Origin: Lachnospiraceae bacterium
GTDB lineage: Bacteria > Bacillota > Clostridia > Lachnospirales > Lachnospiraceae
Length of the DNA: 64,000 nucleotides
Assembly: GCA_031556725.1 (NCBI GenBank)
Contig: JAVBSL010000016.1
Location: 6,364 to 70,363, forward strand
Direction of reading: 5' to 3'
Made by a program: the position numbers and the translations under genes. This document shows positions 11,285 through 62,707 of this stretch, in pieces (the first letter of the stretch is position 1; each line of letters starts with the position of its first letter). Under the pieces are notes generated by a model. That model ran no database searches and was not told where the DNA came from. It saw only the letters and a list, made by a program, of their open reading frames with translations.

Positions 11285-13090
11285 CTATTTCTCCTTCTTT
11301 TCCAAGCTGATTGCACCAAACTTACAATTGCTCATGCAAAGTCCGCAGCCGTTACACATCACTTCATCGATTTCCACGGTACCGTCGGCGGCTTTTCTCA
11401 TGGCCGGACAGCCGGGAACCAGACACATGCTACACTTCTTACATTTCTCACGGTCTACTTTACATTTGCCCTTAGGCACAAAATCTTTTAAAAGAGCACA
11501 GGGGGATTTAGCAATAATAACCGATACCGCCTCTCTTGCCACTTCCTGCTTAATGGTTTTCTCTAATTCTTCTATATCAAAAGCATCTACTTCATAAACA
11601 TGCTCAATGCCCAGTGATTTACACAGGTTCATGATATTGATCATGTAGGTTCTATCGCCCATCAGGGTTTTTCCGGTAGCCGCGTGATCCTGATGGCCGG
11701 TCATCCCGGTAGTTGAATTGTCAAGGATCATTACCGTTCCGGTAGCATTGTTGTAAACCATATTCATCAGTGAATTAATGCCCGTATGCAGGAAGGTGGA
11801 GTCACCGATTACTGCTACCCAGTCCTTTATGTACTCTCTGCCTTTGGCCTTTTCCATTCCATGTAGAGTAGAAATGCTGGCACCCATACAAACCGTGGTA
11901 TCTACAACATTCAAAGGAGCCACCGCCCCTAGCGTATAGCAGCCGATATCACCGGCGGCATGAATCTTTAATTTTTTAAGTACCGAATAAGTACTTCTGT
12001 GAGGACAGCCGGGACAAAGGATCGGCGGCCTGCCAGGTACACTTGCCGGTACGTCGAATTCCGTTTTTTCACCTAAAATGGCACCTTTAATCATTCGTAC
12101 ACTATATTCACCCTGAACGGTAAATATTTCCTTACCGATAGCTGCGATTCCCCAGGATTTTACCTGTTCTTCGATAACCGGTTCTAATTCTTCCACGATA
12201 TATAGCTTATCCACCTTAGCGGCAAATTCTTCAATCAATTTCCGGGGCAGGGGATGTACCAGGCCCAACTTCAAAATGCTGGCTTCGGGAAGGGCTTCCT
12301 TCACATATTGGTAAGGAATACCGCTTGTAATAACACCGATCTTAGTATCCTTGTACTCTACTTTATTCAGATCAAGAGTATTGGCATCTTCTGCCATTCT
12401 TTTCAGCCGTTCTTCCACAACTACATGACGTTTAATGGCATTACCCGGCATCATAACATTTTTGGCAACATCTCTGGTGTAAGACTTATCTTCCACTTCT
12501 ACTCGTTCTTCCAGATTCACAAACCCTTGTGAATGAGCCAGACGAGTTGTGGTCCGCACAATGATCGGAGTGTCATACTCCTCTGAAAATTCAAAAGCAC
12601 GTTTGGTAAATACTCTGGCTTCTTCACTGTCGGAAGGCTCTAACACCGGTACCATGGCAGCTCTTGCCACCATTCGGGTATCCTGTTCATTCTGAGAACT
12701 GTATATCCCCGGATCGTCAGCCGCTACCAGTACCAAACCGCCGTTCACACCGCTGTAAGATGCCGTATATAATGGATCGGAGGCCACATTAACACCCACG
12801 TGCTTCATGGAAACCAACGCACGCACGCCGCTCTGGGAAGCTCCGATAGCCACCTCCATGGCAACCTTTTCATTAGGGGACCACTCAGCATACAATTCGT
12901 CCTTATATTTAATAATATTCTCGCTGATTTCTGTACTGGGAGTACCGGGATAAGCCGCCGATACCTTTACGCCCGCTTCATAGGCACCTCTGGCAATGGC
13001 TGCATTGCCCAGCATAATTTCAGTCGTATTTGCAATTTCTTTACTCAAAACATTTCCACCTTTCGTAAAATAATATTGATTTTCAAACAT
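11285..13090 (-). CDS. iorA: Indolepyruvate:ferredoxin oxidoreductase subunit alpha
   Basis: 601 aa with a TPP-binding domain plus a C-terminal 2x[4Fe-4S] ferredoxin motif (CKKCSMCLVPGCPA...CNGCGLCMSNC). Confidence 0.9.
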   Translation of the reverse strand: MFENQYYFTKGGNVLSKEIANTTEIMLGNAAIARGAYEAGVKVSAAYPGTPSTEISENIIKYKDELYAEWSPNEKVAMEVAIGASQSGVRALVSMKHVGVNVASDPLYTASYSGVNGGLVLVAADDPGIYSSQNEQDTRMVARAAMVPVLEPSDSEEARVFTKRAFEFSEEYDTPIIVRTTTRLAHSQGFVNLEERVEVEDKSYTRDVAKNVMMPGNAIKRHVVVEERLKRMAEDANTLDLNKVEYKDTKIGVITSGIPYQYVKEALPEASILKLGLVHPLPRKLIEEFAAKVDKLYIVEELEPVIEEQVKSWGIAAIGKEIFTVQGEYSVRMIKGAILGEKTEFDVPASVPGRPPILCPGCPHRSTYSVLKKLKIHAAGDIGCYTLGAVAPLNVVDTTVCMGASISTLHGMEKAKGREYIKDWVAVIGDSTFLHTGINSLMNMVYNNATGTVMILDNSTTGMTGHQDHAATGKTLMGDRTYMINIMNLCKSLGIEHVYEVDAFDIEELEKTIKQEVAREAVSVIIAKSPCALLKDFVPKGKCKVDREKCKKCSMCLVPGCPAMRKAADGTVEIDEVMCNGCGLCMSNCKFGAISLEKKEK

Positions 13091-15040: not shown

Positions 15041-15070
15041 TTCCATTGTCAACACTTTTATGAAAAATAA

Positions 15071-15150
15071 AAAATGCGAAATGTCCGTCAGTATCAGACA
15101 CAATTTCCAAGTGTCTGATAATGGCGTACATTTCGCATTTTATTGTTTTT
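15071..15150 (-). terminator. Long-stem terminator downstream of ilvE
   Basis: An imperfect stem of about 28 bp (atgcgaaatgtccgtcagtatcagacac / gtgtctgataatggcgtacatttcgcat), flanked by an A-run and a T-run. Confidence 0.65.
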
Positions 15151-32183: not shown

Positions 32184-32455
32184 GGGGCCCGGCTCAGCCG
32201 TCTGACTCGTTTAAATAGGTAATACACAAGTGTTTCTGCGATTTTTGAAAATTTGTAATGATTTCTTAGTGAAAAATTTTATAGCTTCAATTAAAAATCA
32301 GCAACTGTCCGACGAACAACGTGAGGAGTTTTGCTGATTTTTGATTTGCCTTTTGCTATAAAATTTTCCACTTAGAAATCAAACAAATTAGAAACATGAG
32401 CAGAAATTCTTGTGTACTACATATTTAAACGAGTCAGACGGCTGAGCCGGGCCCC
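32184..32455. repeat. 272-nt imperfect palindrome (long hairpin element C) between convergent genes
   Basis: The outer 33 bp are perfect (ggggcccggctcagccgtctgactcgtttaaata / tatttaaacgagtcagacggctgagccgggcccc). Further paired blocks are atttcttagtgaaaaattttatagc / gctataaaattttccacttagaaat and aaaaatcagcaa / ttgctgattttt. Confidence 0.85.
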
Positions 32456-32480
32456 CTCATAACCCCTTACAATCCCCCAC

Positions 32481-33506
32481 CTAATTGAACTTAAAAAACC
32501 GGCGGCAGATTTTGTAGCCTTCCACGGATATCTTCCGACCTCCCTTTCCGGGGAGGTTGGTAGAGCTTCCAAGAAATCCATAGCGCAGGCGCTTATGCAG
32601 AATCCAATCTTTCTTTTGGATATATTCCCATAATTCTTTCTTTTTTTCCAGATTTTCATCTGTTCCGGAACGTATCATTAATATAGAAGAAACAGTGGTA
32701 ATGATTTCCAGATAATTCAACATATATCTATAAAGTTTACGGTTTCCGGCAATAGCAGTCCGGTTTTCAGCAAGATAATCAACCATCATCTTGTTAACTC
32801 CAATCTGCTGGTCAATTCGGCCGATCATAATATCTTCATTTACCGACTGGTCTTCCCGGCCGATATAATAACGGTAAAAATTCACATCCAGATAATACAT
32901 ATTTTTAACATAAGGAAGAGGCTCGAATACAAAGAGATTGTCCACATAAAAAGTGTGCTCCGGCAGCTTCAGTCCACATTCACGCAACAGTTTAGTCCGG
33001 AAAATCACTGAATGCATCAGCATATATTGACCCTTCCTAAAATGCCGGATATCCTTCCACTGGAACAGTTCTCCCTGAGGAAGAGCATGTCCGTAGCGCA
33101 TAACTTTATTTCGCTTTTCGCCTTCCTTTTCATAAACAAAATTGCTGATCAGCATATCTAACATCGTTTCTCCGCCAGCCAGCTCCTGCAAGATACGAAG
33201 AATTGCCTGGTAAGCTTCTTCTTTTACCCAGTCATCACTGTCTACCACTTTAAAAAACAATCCCGTGGCGTGCTCGATACCGGCATTCACTGCCGAACCA
33301 TGTCCGCCATTTTCTTTATCCACCACTTGTACCACCGTGGGGTGTTCCGCCTGATACTGTCTGGCAATGGATAGGGTTTCATCCCGGGAACCATCATCTA
33401 CAATAATGATTTCAACATCTTCACCGCCTTGCAGCAAAGAATCAATACACTTTCTCATATAGCCTGCCGAATTGTAGCAGGGCACCGTAACTGTCAACAC
33501 TTTCAT
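32481..33506 (-). CDS. Family 2 glycosyltransferase
   Basis: 341 aa; VTVPCYNSAGYMRKCIDSLL, IIIVDDGSRDET, DSDD motifs. Confidence 0.85.
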   Translation of the reverse strand: MKVLTVTVPCYNSAGYMRKCIDSLLQGGEDVEIIIVDDGSRDETLSIARQYQAEHPTVVQVVDKENGGHGSAVNAGIEHATGLFFKVVDSDDWVKEEAYQAILRILQELAGGETMLDMLISNFVYEKEGEKRNKVMRYGHALPQGELFQWKDIRHFRKGQYMLMHSVIFRTKLLRECGLKLPEHTFYVDNLFVFEPLPYVKNMYYLDVNFYRYYIGREDQSVNEDIMIGRIDQQIGVNKMMVDYLAENRTAIAGNRKLYRYMLNYLEIITTVSSILMIRSGTDENLEKKKELWEYIQKKDWILHKRLRYGFLGSSTNLPGKGGRKISVEGYKICRRFFKFN

Positions 33507-40541: not shown

Positions 40542-41753
40542 TCATTTAATGATTTTCAGAAATTTCTTTTTCCCGATTTTTACTACTTCATTGCATATCA
40601 TTACCCGCGTCAGATCTTCCATAGTAAATTTTTCACCCTCAATGCTGATGCCACCTTGCGCAAGAAGCCGGTTGAACTCGCTTTTGCTAGATACATAACC
40701 TTCAGACACGAGCTGCGGAATGATATCTTTCAGGAGGTCACCTTCCACATCAATGACCAGTTCGGGAACATCATCCGGGATGCCCTTGACAGAAAAGGCT
40801 GCATGATAAAAAGCTTTTGCCTTTTCTACTGCCTCGGCATCATGGTATAGGGAAGTAATGGTTTCAGCCAGCGTTAATTTAATATCTCTGGGGTTGGCTC
40901 CTTCAGCCAATTGTTTTCCAATAGCTTCTATCTCATCGGGATGAACATCCGTAACCAGTTCAAAGTAACGAATAATCAAGTTGTCCGGCACTTCCATAGC
41001 CTTTTTAAACATCACCTGCGCCGGTTCATCAATACCAATGTAATTCCCCAGACTCTTGCTCATTTTCTCCACCCCGTCCAATCCTTCCAATATGGGCATA
41101 AAAAGGGCAATCTGCTGCTCTTTCCCCATAGCCTTCTGCAGGGTTCTTCCCATCAGAATATTAAAAGTCTGATCCGTACCGCCCATTTCAATGTCCGCAT
41201 TTAGATGCACCGAATCATAAGCCTGCATCAACGGATAAAAAAACTCATGGATACCGATCGGCACCTGATTACGGAAGCGGTTCTCAAAATCATCCCGCTC
41301 CAGCATCCTCGCCACCGTAGTCACCGACGCCAGCTTAAGCACCTCCTCCAAAGCAAGCTTCGAAAGCCACTCACTGTTAAAACAAACCTGCGTCTTTTCC
41401 CGATCCAACACCTTAAATATCTGTGCGCAATAAGTAGCCGCATTCTCCCTCACCTGTCCTTCGGACAGTGCACTTCTTCCTTTTGCCTTCCCCGTAGGAT
41501 CCCCAATCTTACCGGTAAAATCACCGATAATAATCACAGCCTTATGCCCCATCTCCTGCATCTGCCTAATCTTCCGAAGCACCACCGTATGCCCCAAATG
41601 AATATCCGGAGCCGTTGGGTCAAGCCCTAACTTAACAACCAGCGGTTGCTTAGCAGCAACCGATCTTTCCAGCTTAGCCAACAATTCCTCACGATTCACC
41701 AACTTACAAACGCCCTTTTCAATAATCCTGATTTGTTCCTGTGCACTTAACAT
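40542..41753 (-). CDS. tyrS: Tyrosine--tRNA ligase
   Basis: 403 aa; HIGH-type motif (DIHLGH), KMSKS, and a C-terminal S4-like domain. Confidence 0.95.
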   Translation of the reverse strand: MLSAQEQIRIIEKGVCKLVNREELLAKLERSVAAKQPLVVKLGLDPTAPDIHLGHTVVLRKIRQMQEMGHKAVIIIGDFTGKIGDPTGKAKGRSALSEGQVRENAATYCAQIFKVLDREKTQVCFNSEWLSKLALEEVLKLASVTTVARMLERDDFENRFRNQVPIGIHEFFYPLMQAYDSVHLNADIEMGGTDQTFNILMGRTLQKAMGKEQQIALFMPILEGLDGVEKMSKSLGNYIGIDEPAQVMFKKAMEVPDNLIIRYFELVTDVHPDEIEAIGKQLAEGANPRDIKLTLAETITSLYHDAEAVEKAKAFYHAAFSVKGIPDDVPELVIDVEGDLLKDIIPQLVSEGYVSSKSEFNRLLAQGGISIEGEKFTMEDLTRVMICNEVVKIGKKKFLKIIK

Positions 41754-41786: not shown

Positions 41787-41998
41787 CCGACAATTACAAG
41801 ACTTATACTCGGCAACGAGATGCTACAATTTATTTTGTGTAAATCCCTTTTTGTCACGAAAATGAAACTTTAATTCGTGGAGCTCGCTTGTGCGAACACG
41901 AATTATGCTTAAGGTTCATTGTAGTGTTTGGCAAAACAGGATTGGAACAAAATAAATTGTCGCATCCCGCTGCCGAGTATAAGTCTTGTAATTGTCGG
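41787..41998 (-). repeat. Long hairpin element A (212 nt) inside the tyrS 5' leader
   Basis: The outer 28 bp are perfect (ccgacaattacaagacttatactcggca / tgccgagtataagtcttgtaattgtcgg) and pairing continues to an apical region near 41881-41897. The core is homologous to 58938-58980. Confidence 0.85.
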
Positions 41999-42017
41999 TC
42001 AACAACCCCCCGAGGAC

Positions 42018-42329
42018 AAAAAAATCCCGTCCTCATGTTTCCATAAGGACGAGATGTATCTCGCGTTACCACCTTATTTTATAAACAGCTCACACTGTTT
42101 ACCTCATCAGGTACGGTCCTGCTCCTACTGCTGCCGGCGATACCCTTGCACACGATGACGGGGTGCTTATCCGTCGCAGCCTACTTAGTTTCCCGTTCGG
42201 TGCGCAACTCAAAGAGGTATTCACATCCGCTATCCCCACGCCTCTCATCGACCGGCTGCTTTCTGTCAGGCTTCCTGAATGTTACTATTTCTTATCATAG
42301 TCTTTGCTTTCTCTATGAAATTGTTAATT
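42018..42329 (-). promoter_or_regulatory. T-box riboswitch leader, tyrosine specifier (UAC), with terminator
   Basis: All reads are minus-strand:
- Stem I 5' side: CUAUGAUAAGAAAUAGUAAC (K-turn/AGUA).
- Distal motif: ACAGAAAGC.
- Specifier context: GUGAA-UAC-C (UAC = 42219-42217).
- T-box sequence: AAUAAGGUGGUAACGCGAG (about 42061-42079).
- Terminator: CGUCCU...AGGACGGG plus U7 (42018-42053). Confidence 0.8.
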
Positions 42330-43245: not shown

Positions 43246-44568
43246 TCAATATTCCTCTGCAAATGCCGGCCTGGTACCATTTTTAAAAATGCTGTCAAAA
43301 AATTCCAGCACCACCTCATTCATCTTTTCCACCCCATATCTGGCGTCTATCTTTCCTACTCCCAACTGTCTTGCTAAAAAGGGAGAAAACAAAGGCAAAT
43401 CTGTAAAATTCAGATGACCGGCTTTTCTAAATACCACCGAATATGCTTCAATTGCCCCATCGGCAGCATAAAAATTATAATACTTTTCACCGGTACTTTC
43501 CACAAGTTCTTTGGCCGCCTCGTAATGATCTTCCGCATATATATTTAAAAGCGGAACCGGATAAGGTTCTTCATTCAGAATCGGAAATCCGTTCTCAACG
43601 CCTACTGCCTCACCCAGCATGGAACCATCCAGATCGATCACCGCTCCGATATCCTCTCTGGTCCTTCCCAGCACCGCACCGGCGGTACCGCCCAGCGAAT
43701 GTCCGAACAATCCGATCTTAGTGCTATCCACCTGGATAAAAGGTGTACCGCTATCGGCCGCCGCCAGCTGCAATATGGTATCCAGTACAAAGTCCTCATC
43801 ATCCACCCGCAGCTTCAGCCATTCCTGCGTAGTTTGATAAATCATTTCTTCATCTTCCGATGCATTAATAGTATAAACACTGTTTATAAAATCCATATTG
43901 ACCGGTGTAAAGACCCCTTCCGTATCTAAAGTAAAAAAAGCATGATAGGTATGGCCGATACTTGCCACCACGTAGCCGTGAGATGCCAACTGTTCAAAGG
44001 TAGACTGATTGCTGCCGGAAAACCCAAAAGCACCATGGGAGAATACCAGCAGCGGATAAGTTTCACCGGTATCCTCCTCCGGATACCAGAATTCTACCGT
44101 CAGCTTTCGGTGAGGCGCAGCCTCCCCCTCTTTTACTACAGCAAAAGTTTCGATTCGTTCTTCATCAGTCCATGTATATTTACTGTATGCAACTGCCCAC
44201 TCTCCATCCGGGGTAACAGGTCTGAACTGAGGACATATTATTGCGAGCAGCAACGCCATATAATACAAAAATACTTTTCCAATAAAGTTCCCGATAACAT
44301 TGCCAATATGAAACGCTTTTTCTTTGCTCTGCTTCTTAATTAATCCAATCACTGCCACCAGCGCCTGCACCAGAAGCACCAATGCAATGGCATAATACCT
44401 GAATCCCCATTCCAGCACCCCGGTCAGCAAAAGGACCGTAAGCAGCACAAATTCTCCAATCCTGACAATCCGTCTTTCCTTCACATGCCGCTCATTTTGC
44501 ATTAAATCCCAAATCATCAAAAATACTTCCACTGCAATCAGCAAAACCAATACTATATTTCCCATCAA
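43246..44568 (-). CDS. Membrane-anchored alpha/beta hydrolase (PAF-acetylhydrolase/dienelactone-hydrolase-like)
   Basis: 440 aa with 3-4 N-terminal TM helices, then an alpha/beta fold with the nucleophile elbow GHSLGG. Confidence 0.7.
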   Translation of the reverse strand: MMGNIVLVLLIAVEVFLMIWDLMQNERHVKERRIVRIGEFVLLTVLLLTGVLEWGFRYYAIALVLLVQALVAVIGLIKKQSKEKAFHIGNVIGNFIGKVFLYYMALLLAIICPQFRPVTPDGEWAVAYSKYTWTDEERIETFAVVKEGEAAPHRKLTVEFWYPEEDTGETYPLLVFSHGAFGFSGSNQSTFEQLASHGYVVASIGHTYHAFFTLDTEGVFTPVNMDFINSVYTINASEDEEMIYQTTQEWLKLRVDDEDFVLDTILQLAAADSGTPFIQVDSTKIGLFGHSLGGTAGAVLGRTREDIGAVIDLDGSMLGEAVGVENGFPILNEEPYPVPLLNIYAEDHYEAAKELVESTGEKYYNFYAADGAIEAYSVVFRKAGHLNFTDLPLFSPFLARQLGVGKIDARYGVEKMNEVVLEFFDSIFKNGTRPAFAEEY

Positions 44569-44675
44569 AATTCCTCCATTCGCTTAATAAACTCCATTAT
44601 AATTTCGAAAATCTTAATTTCAATAAACTTTCGATGAATTGCATTTTAGCGAGGTGAGTTGCATCTGAAACGGGC

Positions 44676-44710
44676 AAAAAAAGACGAGGTTCATAACATC
44701 CTCGTCCCTT
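44676..44710 (-). terminator. Intrinsic terminator of mgtE
   Basis: On the minus strand: gacgagg-atgttatgaa-cctcgtc followed by T8. Confidence 0.6.
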
Positions 44711-44730
44711 GCGTTCTGTTCACTCACAGT

Positions 44731-46080
44731 TTATATCTTTAATATTCTCTGAGCAATCTGGAAATATACAATTAAAGACAGTGCATCTACAATCGTGGTG
44801 ATAAAAGGGCTTGCCATAACCGCCGGGTCCAGGCCGATTTTTTTTGCCAATATGGGTAAGGTACAACCAATAATTTTGGCTAAAATGACCGTTACCACAA
44901 TCGTCAGACATACTACCATGGCTACCGGAATCCCAACCTTATCAAACAGCATCAGTTTAACAAAATAAGCGCCTGAAAGTGTAATTCCACAGCAAATTGA
45001 TACTAATATCTCTTTTCCCCAAATGGTGGGAATATTTTTATATTCAATTTCTCCCAGTGACAACCCACGGATTATGGTTACACTGGCCTGCCCGCCGGCA
45101 TTACCACCGGTATCCATCAGCATCGGAATAAAGGCCATCAGGATTGGAACAATACTTAAGGCCTCCTCAAAGGAGGTAATGATCTTGCCGGTAAAAGTCG
45201 CTGAAATCATCAGCAGCAACAGCCAGGGTATCCGGCTCTTCCAGGTTTCAAAAACACCCGTTTTTAAATAGGGCTTATCCGTCGGCACAATAGCGGCCAT
45301 TTTCTCGATATCTTCCGTGGTTTCTTCTTCCAGGATATCCACAACGTCATCCACGGTAATGATACCTACTAACCGGTTTTCGTTATCTACTACCGGCATC
45401 GCAATAAAATCATATTTGGAGAACTGTCTGGCAACCTCTTCCTGATCCATAAGGGTATTCAGATAAATAACGTTCTCACTCATAATATCACTGATTACGG
45501 TGTCTGCTGAACTAAGCAGCAACTGACGCAGGGCTACCGCTCCTACCAGTGTTCGTTTTGAATCTAATACATAACATACATTGATGGTTTCACTATCCAC
45601 ACCCACCCTGCGGATTCGGGCAACAGCTTCTTCCACTGTCATATCTTCCTTCAAATCCACATATTCTACCGTCATAATGCTACCGGCAGAGTCTTCCGGA
45701 TAGCGCAGTAAATGGTTAATATCCCTGCGAGTCTCCGCATTGGCATTAGCCAACAATTTTTTTACCATATTAGCAGGCATTTCTTCCAGAAAATCTACCG
45801 CATCATCGGCCATCAGGTTATTAATGATATTAGCCGCTTCCCGGTCAGACAAGGACGTGATAATATATTGCTGATCATCCACCTCCAGATAGGAAAAAAC
45901 ATCTGCTGCCATACTTTTGGGCAGAATCCGGAAAATCTTTAACTGCGCTTCCTCCTCCAGTTCTCCCATGACTACAGCAATATCGGCAATATTCATATCT
46001 GCCAGTCTTTGACGAAGTCTTGTATATTGCTTAGTCTCCAACAGTTCCTTGATTACATCTAACTCCTTGATTTCGTCCAT
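44731..46080 (-). CDS. mgtE: Magnesium transporter MgtE
   Basis: 449 aa with an MgtE N-domain, tandem CBS domains and a C-terminal TM domain (DTGGNAGGQ). Confidence 0.95.
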   Translation of the reverse strand: MDEIKELDVIKELLETKQYTRLRQRLADMNIADIAVVMGELEEEAQLKIFRILPKSMAADVFSYLEVDDQQYIITSLSDREAANIINNLMADDAVDFLEEMPANMVKKLLANANAETRRDINHLLRYPEDSAGSIMTVEYVDLKEDMTVEEAVARIRRVGVDSETINVCYVLDSKRTLVGAVALRQLLLSSADTVISDIMSENVIYLNTLMDQEEVARQFSKYDFIAMPVVDNENRLVGIITVDDVVDILEEETTEDIEKMAAIVPTDKPYLKTGVFETWKSRIPWLLLLMISATFTGKIITSFEEALSIVPILMAFIPMLMDTGGNAGGQASVTIIRGLSLGEIEYKNIPTIWGKEILVSICCGITLSGAYFVKLMLFDKVGIPVAMVVCLTIVVTVILAKIIGCTLPILAKKIGLDPAVMASPFITTIVDALSLIVYFQIAQRILKI

Positions 46081-58543: not shown

Positions 58544-58857
58544 ATGTTTCTTCCTTTCTGCTTATTGGCAGAAAGTTTCTCATCTATGTCTCTCTGCCTG
58601 TTTATTAGGGATTTCAGCAAAGAGTTCAGATCTTGAGATAGCCCAATACGGCTAAAGAAATATAGATAAAAAAGTTTAGAATTCATTGCTTATCCGTATC
58701 GTAACATATGGATATTAAAAAGTAAATCTATTTCGTGCGAGCGCCATACCTGCTGTTTCACTGCCTGATGTATGAATGGTTGTGAAGGTTTTAACCCTCA
58801 CTCGCTTTTTAAAGTTTTTTCGCAAAGTGCAAGTTGAGATACCGGCCCGCAGGGCCG

Positions 58858-59056
58858 TTAGATTAAGGCAAGAGCCAGCAACGAGAAAAAGCAATTTATT
58901 CCGTAAAAATCCCTTTTTACCATGGAGATGAGACTTAAATTCGTGGAGCCCGCTCGTGCGAACACGAATTTTGCTTAAGGCTCATCGAAATGCTTGGTAA
59001 AACAGGATTTGAACGGAACAAATTGCTTTTCTCATTGTCGGCTCTGCCTAATCTAA
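58858..59056 (-). repeat. Long hairpin element B (199 nt), homologous to element A
   Basis: The arms are ttagattaaggcaagagccagcaacgagaaaaagcaatttattccg / cggaacaaattgcttttctcattgtcggctctgcctaatctaa. The core 58938-58980 is almost identical to 41872-41913. It starts 17 nt after the stop of the isomerase-like gene. Confidence 0.85.
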
Positions 59057-59072
59057 CCCCCGCCGCCCCGAT

Positions 59073-60554
59073 TTAAAAAGGATTTTCGGTTTTGTAGCGT
59101 GCGTTCTTTGGCTGATTGTAGCCGATTTCTTCTACGTCTACGCCGATATATTTGAATACTTCATATAAAGCTTTGCCGAAGTGACCAAATGCTACAGCAC
59201 CGTGGTGAGGATAGTTTCCTTCGATCAGTACGTGGCGGTAAAATCTTCCCATCTCCGGAATAGCGAATACACCGATACCACCAAAGGATTTGGTTGCTAC
59301 AGGGAGAACTTCGCCGTGTGCAATGTAAGCGCGAAGAATATTATCAGCGGTTGACTGTAAGCGGTAGAAGGTAATATCGCCAGGCATGATATCGCCTTCC
59401 AGCGTTCCCTGTGTTACTTCTTCAGGCAGGTTTCTGGCCATGATCATCTGGTATTTCATATTACAGAAGGACAGCTTCTTGGAGTTGGTATTTCCGCAGT
59501 GGAAGCCCATGAAGGTATCTTTATGGGTATAGTCAAATTTACCTTTGATAGCTTCTTCATACATATCAGCCGGTACGGAGTTGTTGATATCAAGCAGGGT
59601 AACTACGTCATCGCTGACAGCAGTTCCGATAAACTCGCTTAAGCATCCATAAATATCTACTTCACAGGATACGGGAATGCCCATTCCGGTGAGACGGCTG
59701 TTTACGTAGCAGGGAACAAAACCAAACTGGGTCTGGAATGCCGGCCAGCATTTTCCGGCGATTGCAACATATTTACGATAGCCTTTGTGTGCCTCTACCC
59801 AATCCAACAGGGTCAGTTCATACTGAGCCAGTTTCGGTAATACTTCGGGTTTCATATTGCCCTGTCCCAGTTCCTCTTCCATTTCTTTCACTTTAGCAGG
59901 GATTCTGGGGTCATTATCCAATTTATGATATGCTTCGAATAAATCTAATTCTGAGTTCTCTTCGATTTCCACGCCCAGGTTGTAAAGCTGCTTAATGGGT
60001 GCATTACAAGCCAGGAAGTTAAGCGGGCGGGGACCGAAGCTGATAATCTTTAAGTCTTTCAAACCAACGATTGCGCGGGCAATGGGAACAAACTCATTGA
60101 TCATATCTGCACATTCTTCAGCGTTTCCTACCGGATATTCCGGGATATAAGCTTTGATGTTACGAAGCTTCAGGTTGTAGCTGGCATTCAGCATACCACA
60201 GTATGCATCACCACGTCCGCCAACCAGATCATTCTGTGATTCTTCTGCTGCTGCTACGAACATAGCCGGTCCGTCAAAATGTTTCGCTAACAAAGTTTCG
60301 GAGATTTCCGGTCCGAAGTTGCCTAAGTAAACACATAATGCGTTACAGCCGGCAGCTTTGATATCCTCTAATGCCTGTACCATGTGGATTTCACTTTCCA
60401 CAATACAGATCGGACATTCATAGATGTCTGCTTTTCCGTATTTGTCCTCATATGCTTTGATTAACGCTTTTCTTCTGTTTACCGATAAAGACTCCGGAAA
60501 ACAGTCACGGCTTACAGCCACGATACCAATTTTTACTTGTGGTAAATTATTCAT
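59073..60554 (-). CDS. L-fucose/L-arabinose isomerase family protein
   Basis: 493 aa with the family-typical N-terminus (KIGIVAVSRDCFP) and a C-terminal catalytic region. The substrate is unknown. Confidence 0.8.
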   Translation of the reverse strand: MNNLPQVKIGIVAVSRDCFPESLSVNRRKALIKAYEDKYGKADIYECPICIVESEIHMVQALEDIKAAGCNALCVYLGNFGPEISETLLAKHFDGPAMFVAAAEESQNDLVGGRGDAYCGMLNASYNLKLRNIKAYIPEYPVGNAEECADMINEFVPIARAIVGLKDLKIISFGPRPLNFLACNAPIKQLYNLGVEIEENSELDLFEAYHKLDNDPRIPAKVKEMEEELGQGNMKPEVLPKLAQYELTLLDWVEAHKGYRKYVAIAGKCWPAFQTQFGFVPCYVNSRLTGMGIPVSCEVDIYGCLSEFIGTAVSDDVVTLLDINNSVPADMYEEAIKGKFDYTHKDTFMGFHCGNTNSKKLSFCNMKYQMIMARNLPEEVTQGTLEGDIMPGDITFYRLQSTADNILRAYIAHGEVLPVATKSFGGIGVFAIPEMGRFYRHVLIEGNYPHHGAVAFGHFGKALYEVFKYIGVDVEEIGYNQPKNARYKTENPF

Positions 60555-60607
60555 TTATTTAGCCTCCTTATCCTGCTTCTGTGCAGGTTATTTATTATTT
60601 AATATTA

Positions 60608-61225
60608 TTATTTTACGTCTAAGTTTTCTCCTACAAGACCCATGGGACTGCCTTCCGCCAATCCACCCTCAGGATGTCCCAGCAGCCATTTATTTACTGC
60701 CGTAAGATGTCCGTCTTCGCCGCCTGCATGAGAAGCCTTCAAGGGGTAATTGGTGCCCTTGGGTAAAACGATGGTAACTCGGAAACCATTGCCATCCACT
60801 GAGCAGGGTGCATAATGCAGGCTGGTTCCATAAAGCTCTACCGCACTTCCCTTGGGAAGCAGAAAAGCTTCCGCTTTGGCTGTATCATAGGTAAAATCAG
60901 CCGTGATGTCCTGCTGCATTCCCAGGATCAGGATGGCATCGGTAGCAGCCACATTGATCTCCGAACCTTTATGATACTCAAAAGCGTTCAGTTTGGTATT
61001 GTGTCCGTTGCAATAGCCGATTTGAATCGGCATCTCGCCATAAGCCTTAACTTCCAACTCCTTCATCACCGGAAGGGCTTCCAGTTCCGCAATGCTGGGC
61101 TCATATACCACATCTGCCGGCAGAGGTGTATTCTGCATGGCCTCAACTAATGCTGTAAAATCTACGTCATCCACAATGCGTCCATATTTTTTGAAAGCAT
61201 CGTCTGTTACTTTTAAAACATTCAT
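60608..61225 (-). CDS. DUF4867-like protein (cupin/ureidoglycolate-lyase-like fold suspected)
   Basis: 205 aa. It sits between the kinase and the isomerase. The family name comes from recollection of similar clostridial operons. Confidence 0.55.
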   Translation of the reverse strand: MNVLKVTDDAFKKYGRIVDDVDFTALVEAMQNTPLPADVVYEPSIAELEALPVMKELEVKAYGEMPIQIGYCNGHNTKLNAFEYHKGSEINVAATDAILILGMQQDITADFTYDTAKAEAFLLPKGSAVELYGTSLHYAPCSVDGNGFRVTIVLPKGTNYPLKASHAGGEDGHLTAVNKWLLGHPEGGLAEGSPMGLVGENLDVK

Positions 61226-61237
61226 TACCTTTCCTCC

Positions 61238-62707
61238 TTATTTAATTTTCTCAAAAATGGATTTGCAAGCCGGATAGATTTCCTTAAACTGCTGATATCT
61301 TGCTTCGTACTTGGCCACCAGCTCTGCTTCCGGCTCTACCGTATCTACCACCTTAACAATTTTGGCTGCTGCCGCTTCAACACTTTCAAATTCACCGCAG
61401 GCTACTGCTGCCAGCATGGCACCGCCTAAAGCCGGTCCTTCTTCACTTTCGATTACATCTACCTTTAAATTCAGGATATTGGCAATCATCTTTTTCCATA
61501 AGGGACTCTTGGCTCCGCCACCGCAGATTTTGGTTCTTTCGATCTTAATTCCCAATGATTTGGCCACTTCAAAGGAATCTCTTAAAGCAAAAGCCACACC
61601 TTCCAATACAGCCTGGGTCATATCGGTTCTGGTAGTATCCATGGTCATTCCGATAAAAGTACCTCTGGCATCCGGATTGTTATGGGGAGACCGCTCGCCC
61701 ATCAGGTAAGGCAGGAAATAAACATGATTATCGCCAAGTCCGCTGATATCTCTTTGTTCTTCCGCATATTTATTGGTTCCGATAATATCTTCCATCCACC
61801 ATTTGTTGCAGGAAGCGGCACTGAGCATACATCCCATCAGATGATAGGTTCCGTCAGCATGGGCAAAAGCATGAAGGGCATTGTATTTATCCACCCCAAA
61901 CTTCTTGGAAGAAATAAAGATGGTCCCGCTGGTTCCCAGGGAAATATTACACATACCATCGCCTACCGTTCCGGTTCCCACTGCTGCTGCGGCATTATCA
62001 CCGGCACCTGCTGCCACTTTTACCGCCTCTGGCAATCCCAGTTCTGCTGCCACTGCCGGTGTTATGGTACCAACTGCTTCATAGCTTTCATAAAGCTTAG
62101 GCAGCATATCGGTGGTTATGCCGCAGATATCACACATTTCTTTGGACCAGCAGCGATTCTTCACATCCATCAGAAGCATTCCGGAAGCATCCGATACATC
62201 GGTACAATTTACGCCGGTAAGTTTATATGCTATGTAATCCTTAGGCAGCATAATCCTGGCAATCCGGGCGAAATTCTCCGGTTCTTTATTCTTTACCCAC
62301 AGTACCTTCGGGGCCGTAAACCCAGTAAACGAAATGTTGGCCGTGTACTCGGATAATTTATCCTTACCAATTACCTGATTCAAATAATCACATTCCTCGT
62401 AAGTCCGGCCATCATTCCATAAAATCGCCGGACGGATTACCTGATCCTGATCATCCAAAATCACCAGGCCATGCATCTGACCGCCAAAGCTGATACCGGC
62501 CACCTGAGACTTGTCGGCTCCCGCCAGCAGTTCCTTGATCCCTGCCATGGTCTGTTCATACCAATCTTCCGGTTTCTGTTCTGACCATCCGGGATGAGGA
62601 AAATAAAGGGGATATTCTTTAGATACAATATTCTGTATCTTTCCTTCTCCATCCATCAATAGTAACTTTACTGCGCTTGTCCCCAAATCAACACCAATAT
62701 ATAGCAT
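61238..62707 (-). CDS. xylB: Xylulokinase (FGGY carbohydrate kinase)
   Basis: 489 aa; MLYIGVDLGTSAVK N-terminus and FGGY signature regions (GGGAKSPLW). Confidence 0.9.
   Translation of the reverse strand: MLYIGVDLGTSAVKLLLMDGEGKIQNIVSKEYPLYFPHPGWSEQKPEDWYEQTMAGIKELLAGADKSQVAGISFGGQMHGLVILDDQDQVIRPAILWNDGRTYEECDYLNQVIGKDKLSEYTANISFTGFTAPKVLWVKNKEPENFARIARIMLPKDYIAYKLTGVNCTDVSDASGMLLMDVKNRCWSKEMCDICGITTDMLPKLYESYEAVGTITPAVAAELGLPEAVKVAAGAGDNAAAAVGTGTVGDGMCNISLGTSGTIFISSKKFGVDKYNALHAFAHADGTYHLMGCMLSAASCNKWWMEDIIGTNKYAEEQRDISGLGDNHVYFLPYLMGERSPHNNPDARGTFIGMTMDTTRTDMTQAVLEGVAFALRDSFEVAKSLGIKIERTKICGGGAKSPLWKKMIANILNLKVDVIESEEGPALGGAMLAAVACGEFESVEAAAAKIVKVVDTVEPEAELVAKYEARYQQFKEIYPACKSIFEKIK

Follow-up and report, generated by a model that had tools for sequence, protein, structure and literature searches.

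Two long hairpins of a Lachnospiraceae genome, best explained as worn copies of a probable MITE family

The window (the whole 64-kb stretch of Lachnospiraceae DNA analysed here) carries two very long hairpins, A and B, each lying next to a gene of the minus strand, which is also the core-sense strand of both elements. Element B, a hairpin of 201 nt at 58857-59057 (minus strand), is found 16-17 nt past the stop codon (59073-59075) of a fucose-isomerase-like gene (59073-60554, minus strand; Pfam PF02952), whose protein as translated from the listed ORF has no database record and which is the last gene of an FGGY kinase / DUF4867 / isomerase cluster. A spacing of 17 nt had been read from the sequence beforehand; the extent of the self-complement BLAST match makes the palindrome one base longer on each side than first noted. 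Element A, the second copy, is a hairpin of 212 nt at 41787-41998 (minus strand) in the leader of tyrS, which encodes tyrosine--tRNA ligase (40542-41753, minus strand; NCBIfam TIGR00234, E = 3e-109). The T-box leader of this gene occupies 42042-42307 (minus strand; Rfam RF00230, 105 bits), and A sits within the 5' UTR between the T-box terminator (42024-42055, from a terminator scan) and the tyrS ribosome-binding site, that is, downstream of the terminator. The flanking genes that were scanned comprise tyrS, BipA and a LytTR protein around A, and the FGGY kinase, DUF4867, the fucose-isomerase-like protein, a deaminase and a GNAT protein around B; no transposase, reverse transcriptase or integrase is found among them, in agreement with the original prediction.

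The synteny upstream of the B cluster is kept across Lachnospiraceae, while the downstream synteny is not. The FGGY kinase / DUF4867 / fucose-isomerase-like cluster itself (window 59073-62707; loci L004-L083) is unusually conserved, the isomerase-like protein being 87-91% identical across Acetatifactor, Kineothrix, Waltera and Eisenbergiella. This is in contrast with the TyrRS of the source genome, for which just one relative exceeds 73%.

Both elements fold into a single continuous hairpin, with energies of -109 kcal/mol (plus strand) and -116 kcal/mol (minus strand) for A (z = -14 to -16), and of -97 and -107 kcal/mol, respectively, for B (z = -11); none of the shuffles reached an equal fold energy, and the presence of very long hairpins at these positions is thus borne out. 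A 33-nt central block occurs exactly twice in the 64-kb window, at 41872-41904 and 58938-58970, where none would be expected by chance, which upholds the near-identical centre described earlier. BLAST aligns A 41812-41959 with B 58878-59025 over 148 bp at 80% identity, and detects no similarity between the outer ~25 bp of the two elements. The arms differ in a compensated manner, A having caatttattttgt/acaaaataaattg where B has caatttattccg/cggaacaaattg (left arm against the reverse complement of the right). The outer arms of A are complementary at 28 of 28 positions, those of B nearly fully so. The transition mismatches, claimed to be mostly G·U on minus-strand RNA, do favour the minus over the plus strand, by 4:1 in A and 6:1 in B. 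The central modules, at 41834-41950 in A and 58900-59016 in B (both minus strand), match a 117-position covariance model (cmsearch E = 1e-33 and 2e-36, respectively); the same bulges are kept in the apical module of A and B, and the model aligns these bulges across the family.

The tyrS leader of the nearest relative, GCA_031555615.1 (TyrRS identity 84%), provides an empty site for comparison. Its T-box leader is ~93% identical, and the interval from terminator to ribosome-binding site is free of any element. The window derives from an uncultured genome of the Lachnospiraceae/Clostridiales. An identical TyrRS is found on one contig of Logan sample SRR23967709, and the independent Logan assembly of the reads gives A exactly (L001:50-261); A is therefore not an assembly artefact. 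Aligned with the spacer at the relative's empty site, the arms of A score 8.0 against a shuffle mean of 7.6. As this is no significant similarity, the arms were not copied from local flanking DNA, and outward growth of a palindrome from the flanking DNA was dropped as a candidate.

Members of the family beyond the window were not reached by the simplest searches. The exact core pattern GGAGCNCGCTNGTGCGAACACGAA, which is overly strict, had 0 matches in genome contigs (185,579 species representatives) and in metagenome contigs. By blastn, A had no match in plasmids or phages, and a canonical copy (see below) had none in plasmids. A BLAST comparison of A, B and a third long hairpin of the window (C, described below) with 1.44 Mb of related Lachnospiraceae loci likewise gave no match, overlooking a member that was seen by eye. 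This third member, E (L043:2981-3232), comes from the mouse-gut Lachnospiraceae MAG MGBC140131 and is one of the long hairpins seen in a scan of 80 Lachnospiraceae loci around homologues of B's neighbour gene. Its apical ~90 nt recur on the minus strand of both A and B, a compensated apical-stem pair among them. A covariance model of the E/A/B apical region (R1) matches A, B and E only in 1.5 Mb, with scores of 135 bits for B and 126 bits for A.

A relaxed motif built from the positions common to A, B and E (TCGTGTT N8-16 TCCACGAWTT N1-4 AGTYTCA) is present in more than 120 metagenome contigs among the matches listed, mostly from human or animal gut, and the sampled contigs contain at least 45 independent flank contexts. 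The elements had been taken for a dispersed family from two copies, and this view holds. Apart from A and B, the other copies are known from metagenome contigs, some of them chimeric at the repeat. In Coprococcus comes, one common copy occupies the interval between aroB and prs (prs 100% identical); all eight C. comes places that were fetched have it, among them one NCBI assembly, as does a sister lineage. Many contigs terminate within the element, as is expected of a multicopy repeat. In L123, L149, L161, L188, L201 and others, the left flank of one MITE locus is joined to the right flank of another and the arms are unpaired; these are probably chimeric assemblies across the repeat, the alternative being real recombination between copies. 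A hicAB toxin-antitoxin pair is inserted directly beside the prs-aroB MITE in some C. comes strains (L207, L209, L210: 3933-4536) and is absent from others. No paper describing the sequence was found, nor any relevant one on a MITE in Lachnospiraceae or Coprococcus, in a literature search of incomplete coverage, and a search with sequence strings returned only unrelated primers; this probable MITE family of gut Lachnospiraceae is apparently previously undescribed.

The anatomy of the element is best seen in its more complete copies. Recognisable TIR pairs (at most 5 mismatches in 20) are present in 12 copies, and the canonical element was defined from the eight of these in which the TIRs are 232-236 bp apart. 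It is ~235 bp long and bounded by TIRs of ~20 bp (GATTCGGGTGTCAAAAGCCC; also given as GATTCGGGTGTCAAAAGCCCTG). Each arm features a subterminal TIR-like motif (GCACAAAAGAA / TTCTTTTGTGC), near which the 161-nt forms end; hairpin extents range from 153 to 318 nt, with clusters at ~161, 187 and 273 nt. The apical module of ~90 nt is asymmetric and strongly conserved, and the whole element can be folded into one hairpin. One copy has lost the central ~66 nt and retains its TIRs.

Perfect 7-bp direct repeats are found just outside the TIRs in L098 (CTATAAT), L194 (CATATAG) and L121 (TCAATAG). The duplication has one mismatch in L175 and L109 and is more degenerate in others; its length is 7 bp, or possibly 8 bp. 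L098 and L121 are ~99% identical over 298 bp, with unrelated flanks and different duplications, a combination characteristic of recent transposition; a third locus of this subfamily is L194. All three loci have a 47-nt insert in the right arm, itself a small hairpin (GTCCTAAGG...CCTTAGGAC), probably another small palindromic element that inserted into the arm, and L098 and L121 have an extra 16-nt palindromic insert (AAAACAAATTTTGTTT) in the left arm. The proposal that the core element is nested into pre-existing palindromes is unnecessary, given subfamilies with complete TIR-to-TIR homology.

Bacterial elements of the MITE class are under ~400 bp, and the present family, at 153-318 nt and with no transposase gene in the scanned flanks, is within this size. 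Its dispersed copies include near-identical ones at different loci, and eight contigs hold two copies each, six of these pairs having been aligned. Insertion polymorphism is seen in the tyrS leader, where A is missing from GCA_031555615.1; the C. comes copy, however, is fixed in all eight places and in the sister lineage. A cognate autonomous IS was not found: in 2.4 Mb of loci no two TIRs are paired at a spacing of 240-4000 bp, plasmids yielded nothing, and two matches of the TIR in viral contigs are chance-like and unconvincing. The TIR may resemble the left end of IS256 (GATAAAGTCCGT...). Together, canonical relatives with TIRs and 7-bp target-site duplications make it highly probable that the A/B family is a MITE-type non-autonomous transposon of gut Lachnospiraceae.

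Within such a family, A and B are best explained as old, worn copies. One end of B (GTTAGATTAAGGCAAGAGCC, 58857-58876, no strand assigned) resembles, by eye, a shortened family TIR, and the opposite end (GGCTCTGCCTAATCTAAC, 59040-59057, likewise) is its inverted partner; B is described as a degenerate copy. The ends of A are not convincingly recognisable as the family TIR; part of its arm (GGCAGCGGGATGCG...ACAATTT) resembles the arm of the E/L110 subfamily (GGCTGCGGAGCGCG...GCAATTT), again as judged by eye. No target-site duplication is seen at B, and A is flanked by TTGTTGA and GTTATGA, to be compared with ATGTTGA in the relative's empty site; a clear duplication was thus not found at either element. 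The outermost arms of A and B had been called unrelated. This is correct in that the two show no similarity to each other, but the ends of B do resemble the shortened TIR, and the unrelatedness of the arms is interpreted as subfamily divergence. The original prediction had also set its own reading against a core that maps to the termini of a known IS or MITE with target-site duplications. The TIRs and 7-bp duplications of canonical relatives largely bear this out, except that the MITE is an unnamed one and the core is central.

The central region and the arms differ greatly in conservation. Mean identity between independent copies is 82% over the central 90 nt and ~60% over 50 nt of arm on each side, the shuffle baseline being 56%, while within copies the arms are complementary (Watson-Crick) at 1623 of 1836 aligned positions (88%). 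The picture of a conserved core with differing yet self-complementary arms, drawn initially from A and B, thus extends to the family. Two copies on one contig have the core in common and different arms; within a subfamily, the arms are copied faithfully. A centre that is better conserved than the termini is the reverse of what is typical of a MITE. When 74 distinct copies are aligned on the model, 30 of the 42 pairs of the core region have changed on both sides, so that additional copies do contain the compensatory changes anticipated by the original prediction. The paired cells amount to 89.7%, compared with 76.6% in shuffles and 32-47% in controls with slid partners; the alignment is fitted to the structure and hence biased towards it, and by this model the covariation effect is nevertheless large.

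Compensated change is also seen between orthologous copies. The sister lineage of C. comes shows two compensated pairs in the apical stem, and two compensated pairs also distinguish L096 from L132, whose flanks have diverged by 12%. The flanks of L153 and L119 are 97-98% identical, yet two blocks of 6-7 bp have been coordinately replaced in both arms. On these alignments, point mutation and selection cannot yield a coordinated block replacement at such low divergence, and simple transposition does not explain coordinated change in orthologous copies. The candidates for such a change in place are conversion by a paralogous copy, a second insertion into the same site, and hairpin-templated copying. 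The last has a counterpart in quasipalindrome template switching within imperfect inverted repeats, reportedly described by Ripley in 1982 and in later E. coli work. This process copies a change in one arm to the other, including multi-base blocks, without selection, and fits the differences between orthologous copies; it is, however, a mutational process and not an element family, and alone it would erase the bulges that are kept in the family core.

Several other long hairpins were observed in the window and in related genomes. Hairpin C (window 32184-32455) is 272 nt long, with a fold energy of -155 kcal/mol (z = -22) and 34 perfectly paired outer bp; the convergent genes on its two sides encode a PAP2-family protein and a glycosyltransferase. 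It shows no similarity to A or B and has no homologue in any fetched locus. A, B and C are each followed on the plus strand by a C-rich tract (42000-42011, 59058-59069 and 32456-32483, respectively); read on the minus strand, this is a G-rich tract lying 5' of the hairpin. At the relative's empty site there is no G-run such as the one beside A, and most canonical copies are without such a tract. An 87-nt hairpin at 15063-15149 consists of two 39-nt arms (85% complementary) and a 9-nt loop. Hairpin D, a G+C-rich hairpin of 171 nt after mgtE in the relative (L002:7030-7200, GCA_031555615.1), corresponds in the window (44568-44731) to an ordinary terminator-like hairpin only. Gain or loss of unrelated long hairpins between the two genomes has therefore run in both directions.

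Directly downstream of the fucose-isomerase-like gene of Waltera and Acetatifactor lie the hairpin families F and G/J (L039:11527-11772 and 11800-11941; L059:11569-11964; L058:11535-11664; L063:11537-11677). G/J has REP-like ends (GTAGCC...GGCTAC) and is in opposite orientation in the two genera, with the flanks apparently inverted too. Comparison of element F between the sister species Waltera hominis and W. acetigignens (L039 against L059, alignment A3 columns 66-310) shows that the terminal 10 bp (GAACTCCCGG) and the core are kept, with ~27 bp of both arms wholly replaced, pairing retained and flanks nearly identical, which is the same pattern of coordinated arm change as in orthologous MITE copies. 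In three genomes, Kineothrix alysoides among them (L026:2763-2946, L020:2972-3095, L031:2989-3110), a 60-nt hairpin (GTAAG...CTTAC) and a second one of 33 nt form a conserved intergenic arrangement ~7 kb upstream of the isomerase-like gene; in L026 the arrangement is partly duplicated in tandem.

The strong covariation could also be taken to mean that the element is a structured non-coding RNA, or a cis-acting mRNA element such as a 3' stabiliser, an RNase III site or an sRNA, whose mobility is secondary. The core-sense (minus) strand of A and B folds better by 6-10 kcal/mol, the bulges of the apical module are retained, and A, B and E are all in sense orientation to their neighbouring genes. 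G·U-type mismatches favour the core-sense strand by 163:39 in the model alignment; a single fixed pair, however, accounts for 68 of the 163 cells, and that strand was the one to which the alignment had been fitted. A strand-symmetric count over the arms gives 60:34 (p = 0.01), driven by a few copies. Against an RNA element, the family occurs in both orientations over ~70 contexts (tandem 18 vs 14, convergent 20, divergent 20, by crude ORF calls with some redundancy), so that the leaning towards a 3' UTR and minus-strand RNA that had been proposed from B is not sustained. No promoter-like site is present in or beside A or B. Rfam returned only the T-box and tRNA for the whole window and nothing for the elements, for five canonical loci or, with a canonical copy, even at E = 1, in keeping with the earlier failure to recognise an RNA family; at the E-value threshold, a generic long-hairpin match to the plant MIR2670 was obtained (28.8 bits, the gathering score being 117), and none for L110. 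Moreover, the TIRs and target-site duplications, together with the near-identical copies found at new loci, show a life cycle at the DNA level. An RNA with incidental mobility is accordingly judged unlikely; the G·T/G·U strand bias modestly suggests that one of the strands is important in single-stranded form and is not evidence for an mRNA element. Two further RNA or DNA signals were considered and set aside. In an intrinsic terminator, a U-run follows a short G+C-rich stem on the transcribed strand, and the terminator scan found no such site on the minus strand of A or B (B has just a 5-bp stem on the plus strand), supporting the statement that these are not simple terminators. Integron attC sites have 5'-RYYYAAC ... 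GTTRRRY-3' core sites that end an imperfect palindrome beside gene cassettes; B has the reversed arrangement (GTTAGAT...ATCTAAC), A lacks either motif, and there is no cassette array.

The same hint of a single-strand bias, together with conserved asymmetric apical bulges that could serve as a protein recognition site, would suit a REPIN-like element moved as ssDNA by a RAYT or by an IS200/IS605-type HUH tyrosine transposase that recognises the hairpin. As in REPINs, the entire element forms a hairpin whose arms change in a compensatory way (PMC3116915), and another hairpin family in related genomes, G/J, has the GTAGCC...GGCTAC ends. The A/B family, on the other hand, has no GTAG terminal motif, and at 235 bp is about twice the typical REPIN size. 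REPINs consist of REP units with a conserved 5' GTAG, are associated with a RAYT gene and have no target-site duplication; the 7-bp duplications and 20-bp TIRs of the canonical copies thus set the family apart from them, and IS200/IS605 and RAYT-type transposition is not known to yield such duplications or TIRs. Movement of this kind is considered very improbable. Hardly credible at all is an origin of A and B as local products, be it assembly artefacts, a recent segmental duplication or de novo template-switch palindromes made from flanking DNA. The window does stem from a metagenome-assembled genome, and the perfect outer arms of A look like those of a young templated copy; but A is reproduced in an independent assembly, its arms do not match the empty-site spacer, and A and B, at 80% identity and with further copies elsewhere, are no recent duplicates. 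The census of the family, over many studies and in all the C. comes places, effectively refutes this explanation.

The probable assignment to the MITEs can be compared with what is known of related systems. Bacterial MITEs, which include Correia/NEMIS of Neisseria, Chunjie of Geobacter and Nezha of cyanobacteria, have TIRs and flanking duplications, lack a transposase and form long stem-loops, that of Chunjie having ~ -98 to -130 kcal/mol (PMC3184786). The A/B family resembles these three in being small and non-coding, with TIRs, duplications and many intergenic copies, and bacterial MITEs generally in its insertion-site polymorphism between relatives and its very stable stem-loop; the fold energies of A and B are in the same range as those of Chunjie. 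It differs in that its central ~90 nt are the best conserved part, whereas the arms and even the TIRs vary. No sequence relationship to the named bacterial MITEs is known, and no cognate IS was found for the A/B family. The duplication is 7 bp long at AT-rich sites, in which it departs from the Correia elements with their TA duplication.

The bcr1 element of the Bacillus cereus group, of ~155 bp and with 5-bp direct repeats, forms a cruciform of two independent stem-loops; compensatory changes keep its double-stranded structure, it is reported to be transcribed, and its distribution is non-conserved between strains (PMC3184786). By description, the A/B family is similar as a Firmicute element with short flanking direct repeats and compensatory changes, but it forms one hairpin and has 7-bp duplications. 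REPINs are REP doublets that form hairpins and are mobilised by RAYTs; they are described in RAYT-containing genomes, such as those of Pseudomonas, E. coli and Nostoc, and compensatory changes are common in them (PMC3116915). The A/B family shares with REPINs a hairpin as the replicative unit, with conserved blocks and a spacer or arm that is free as long as it pairs. The conserved blocks of REPINs are at the two ends, whereas in the A/B family the centre is conserved too, and more strongly; REPINs, of ~70-110 nt, are also without the signature of TIRs plus duplication.

From the TIRs and duplications we infer that the MITE would be mobilised in trans by a DDE-type transposase, in a cut-and-paste or copy-and-paste manner, with a staggered cut of 7 bp (possibly 8 bp) at AT-rich targets. 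Sequence constraint would be limited to the termini, the subterminal motif and the apical module, and the remaining arm sequence would only be required to pair; with pairing as the sole requirement, subfamilies would have drifted to arms that are unrelated and still self-complementary. Pairing may be maintained by selection on transposition-competent lineages for a single-stranded hairpin that unites the ends or, alternatively, by hairpin-templated copying (quasipalindrome template switching) or conversion between copies. In the present genome, A has been tolerated in the tyrS leader and B behind the sugar operon, and mRNA stability or processing would be influenced only secondarily, if at all.

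A variant of this model is that the ~90-nt apical module is the actual functional unit, a single-strand-specific signal (RNA or ssDNA) for which the MITE is the vehicle. The module may, for example, be a small RNA with a defined structure, or a hairpin recognised by a strand-specific enzyme for mobilisation or processing. We regard this as rather doubtful. If true, it would account for a centre that is better conserved than the termini, for the lean of the mismatches to G·T on one strand, and for the compensated changes that orthologous copies go on acquiring in place.

As a probable MITE, the family enlarges the known mobile DNA of gut Lachnospiraceae by an abundant member, and one of its hosts, Coprococcus comes, is a common human commensal. 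Its repeats break metagenome assemblies, with many contigs ending in the element and several looking chimeric. Its insertions give rise to strain-level polymorphisms and can enter regulatory leaders, here the stretch separating a T-box riboswitch from tyrS. With dozens of copies, the family is also a natural data set that could help to separate selection for a hairpin from hairpin-templated mutation.
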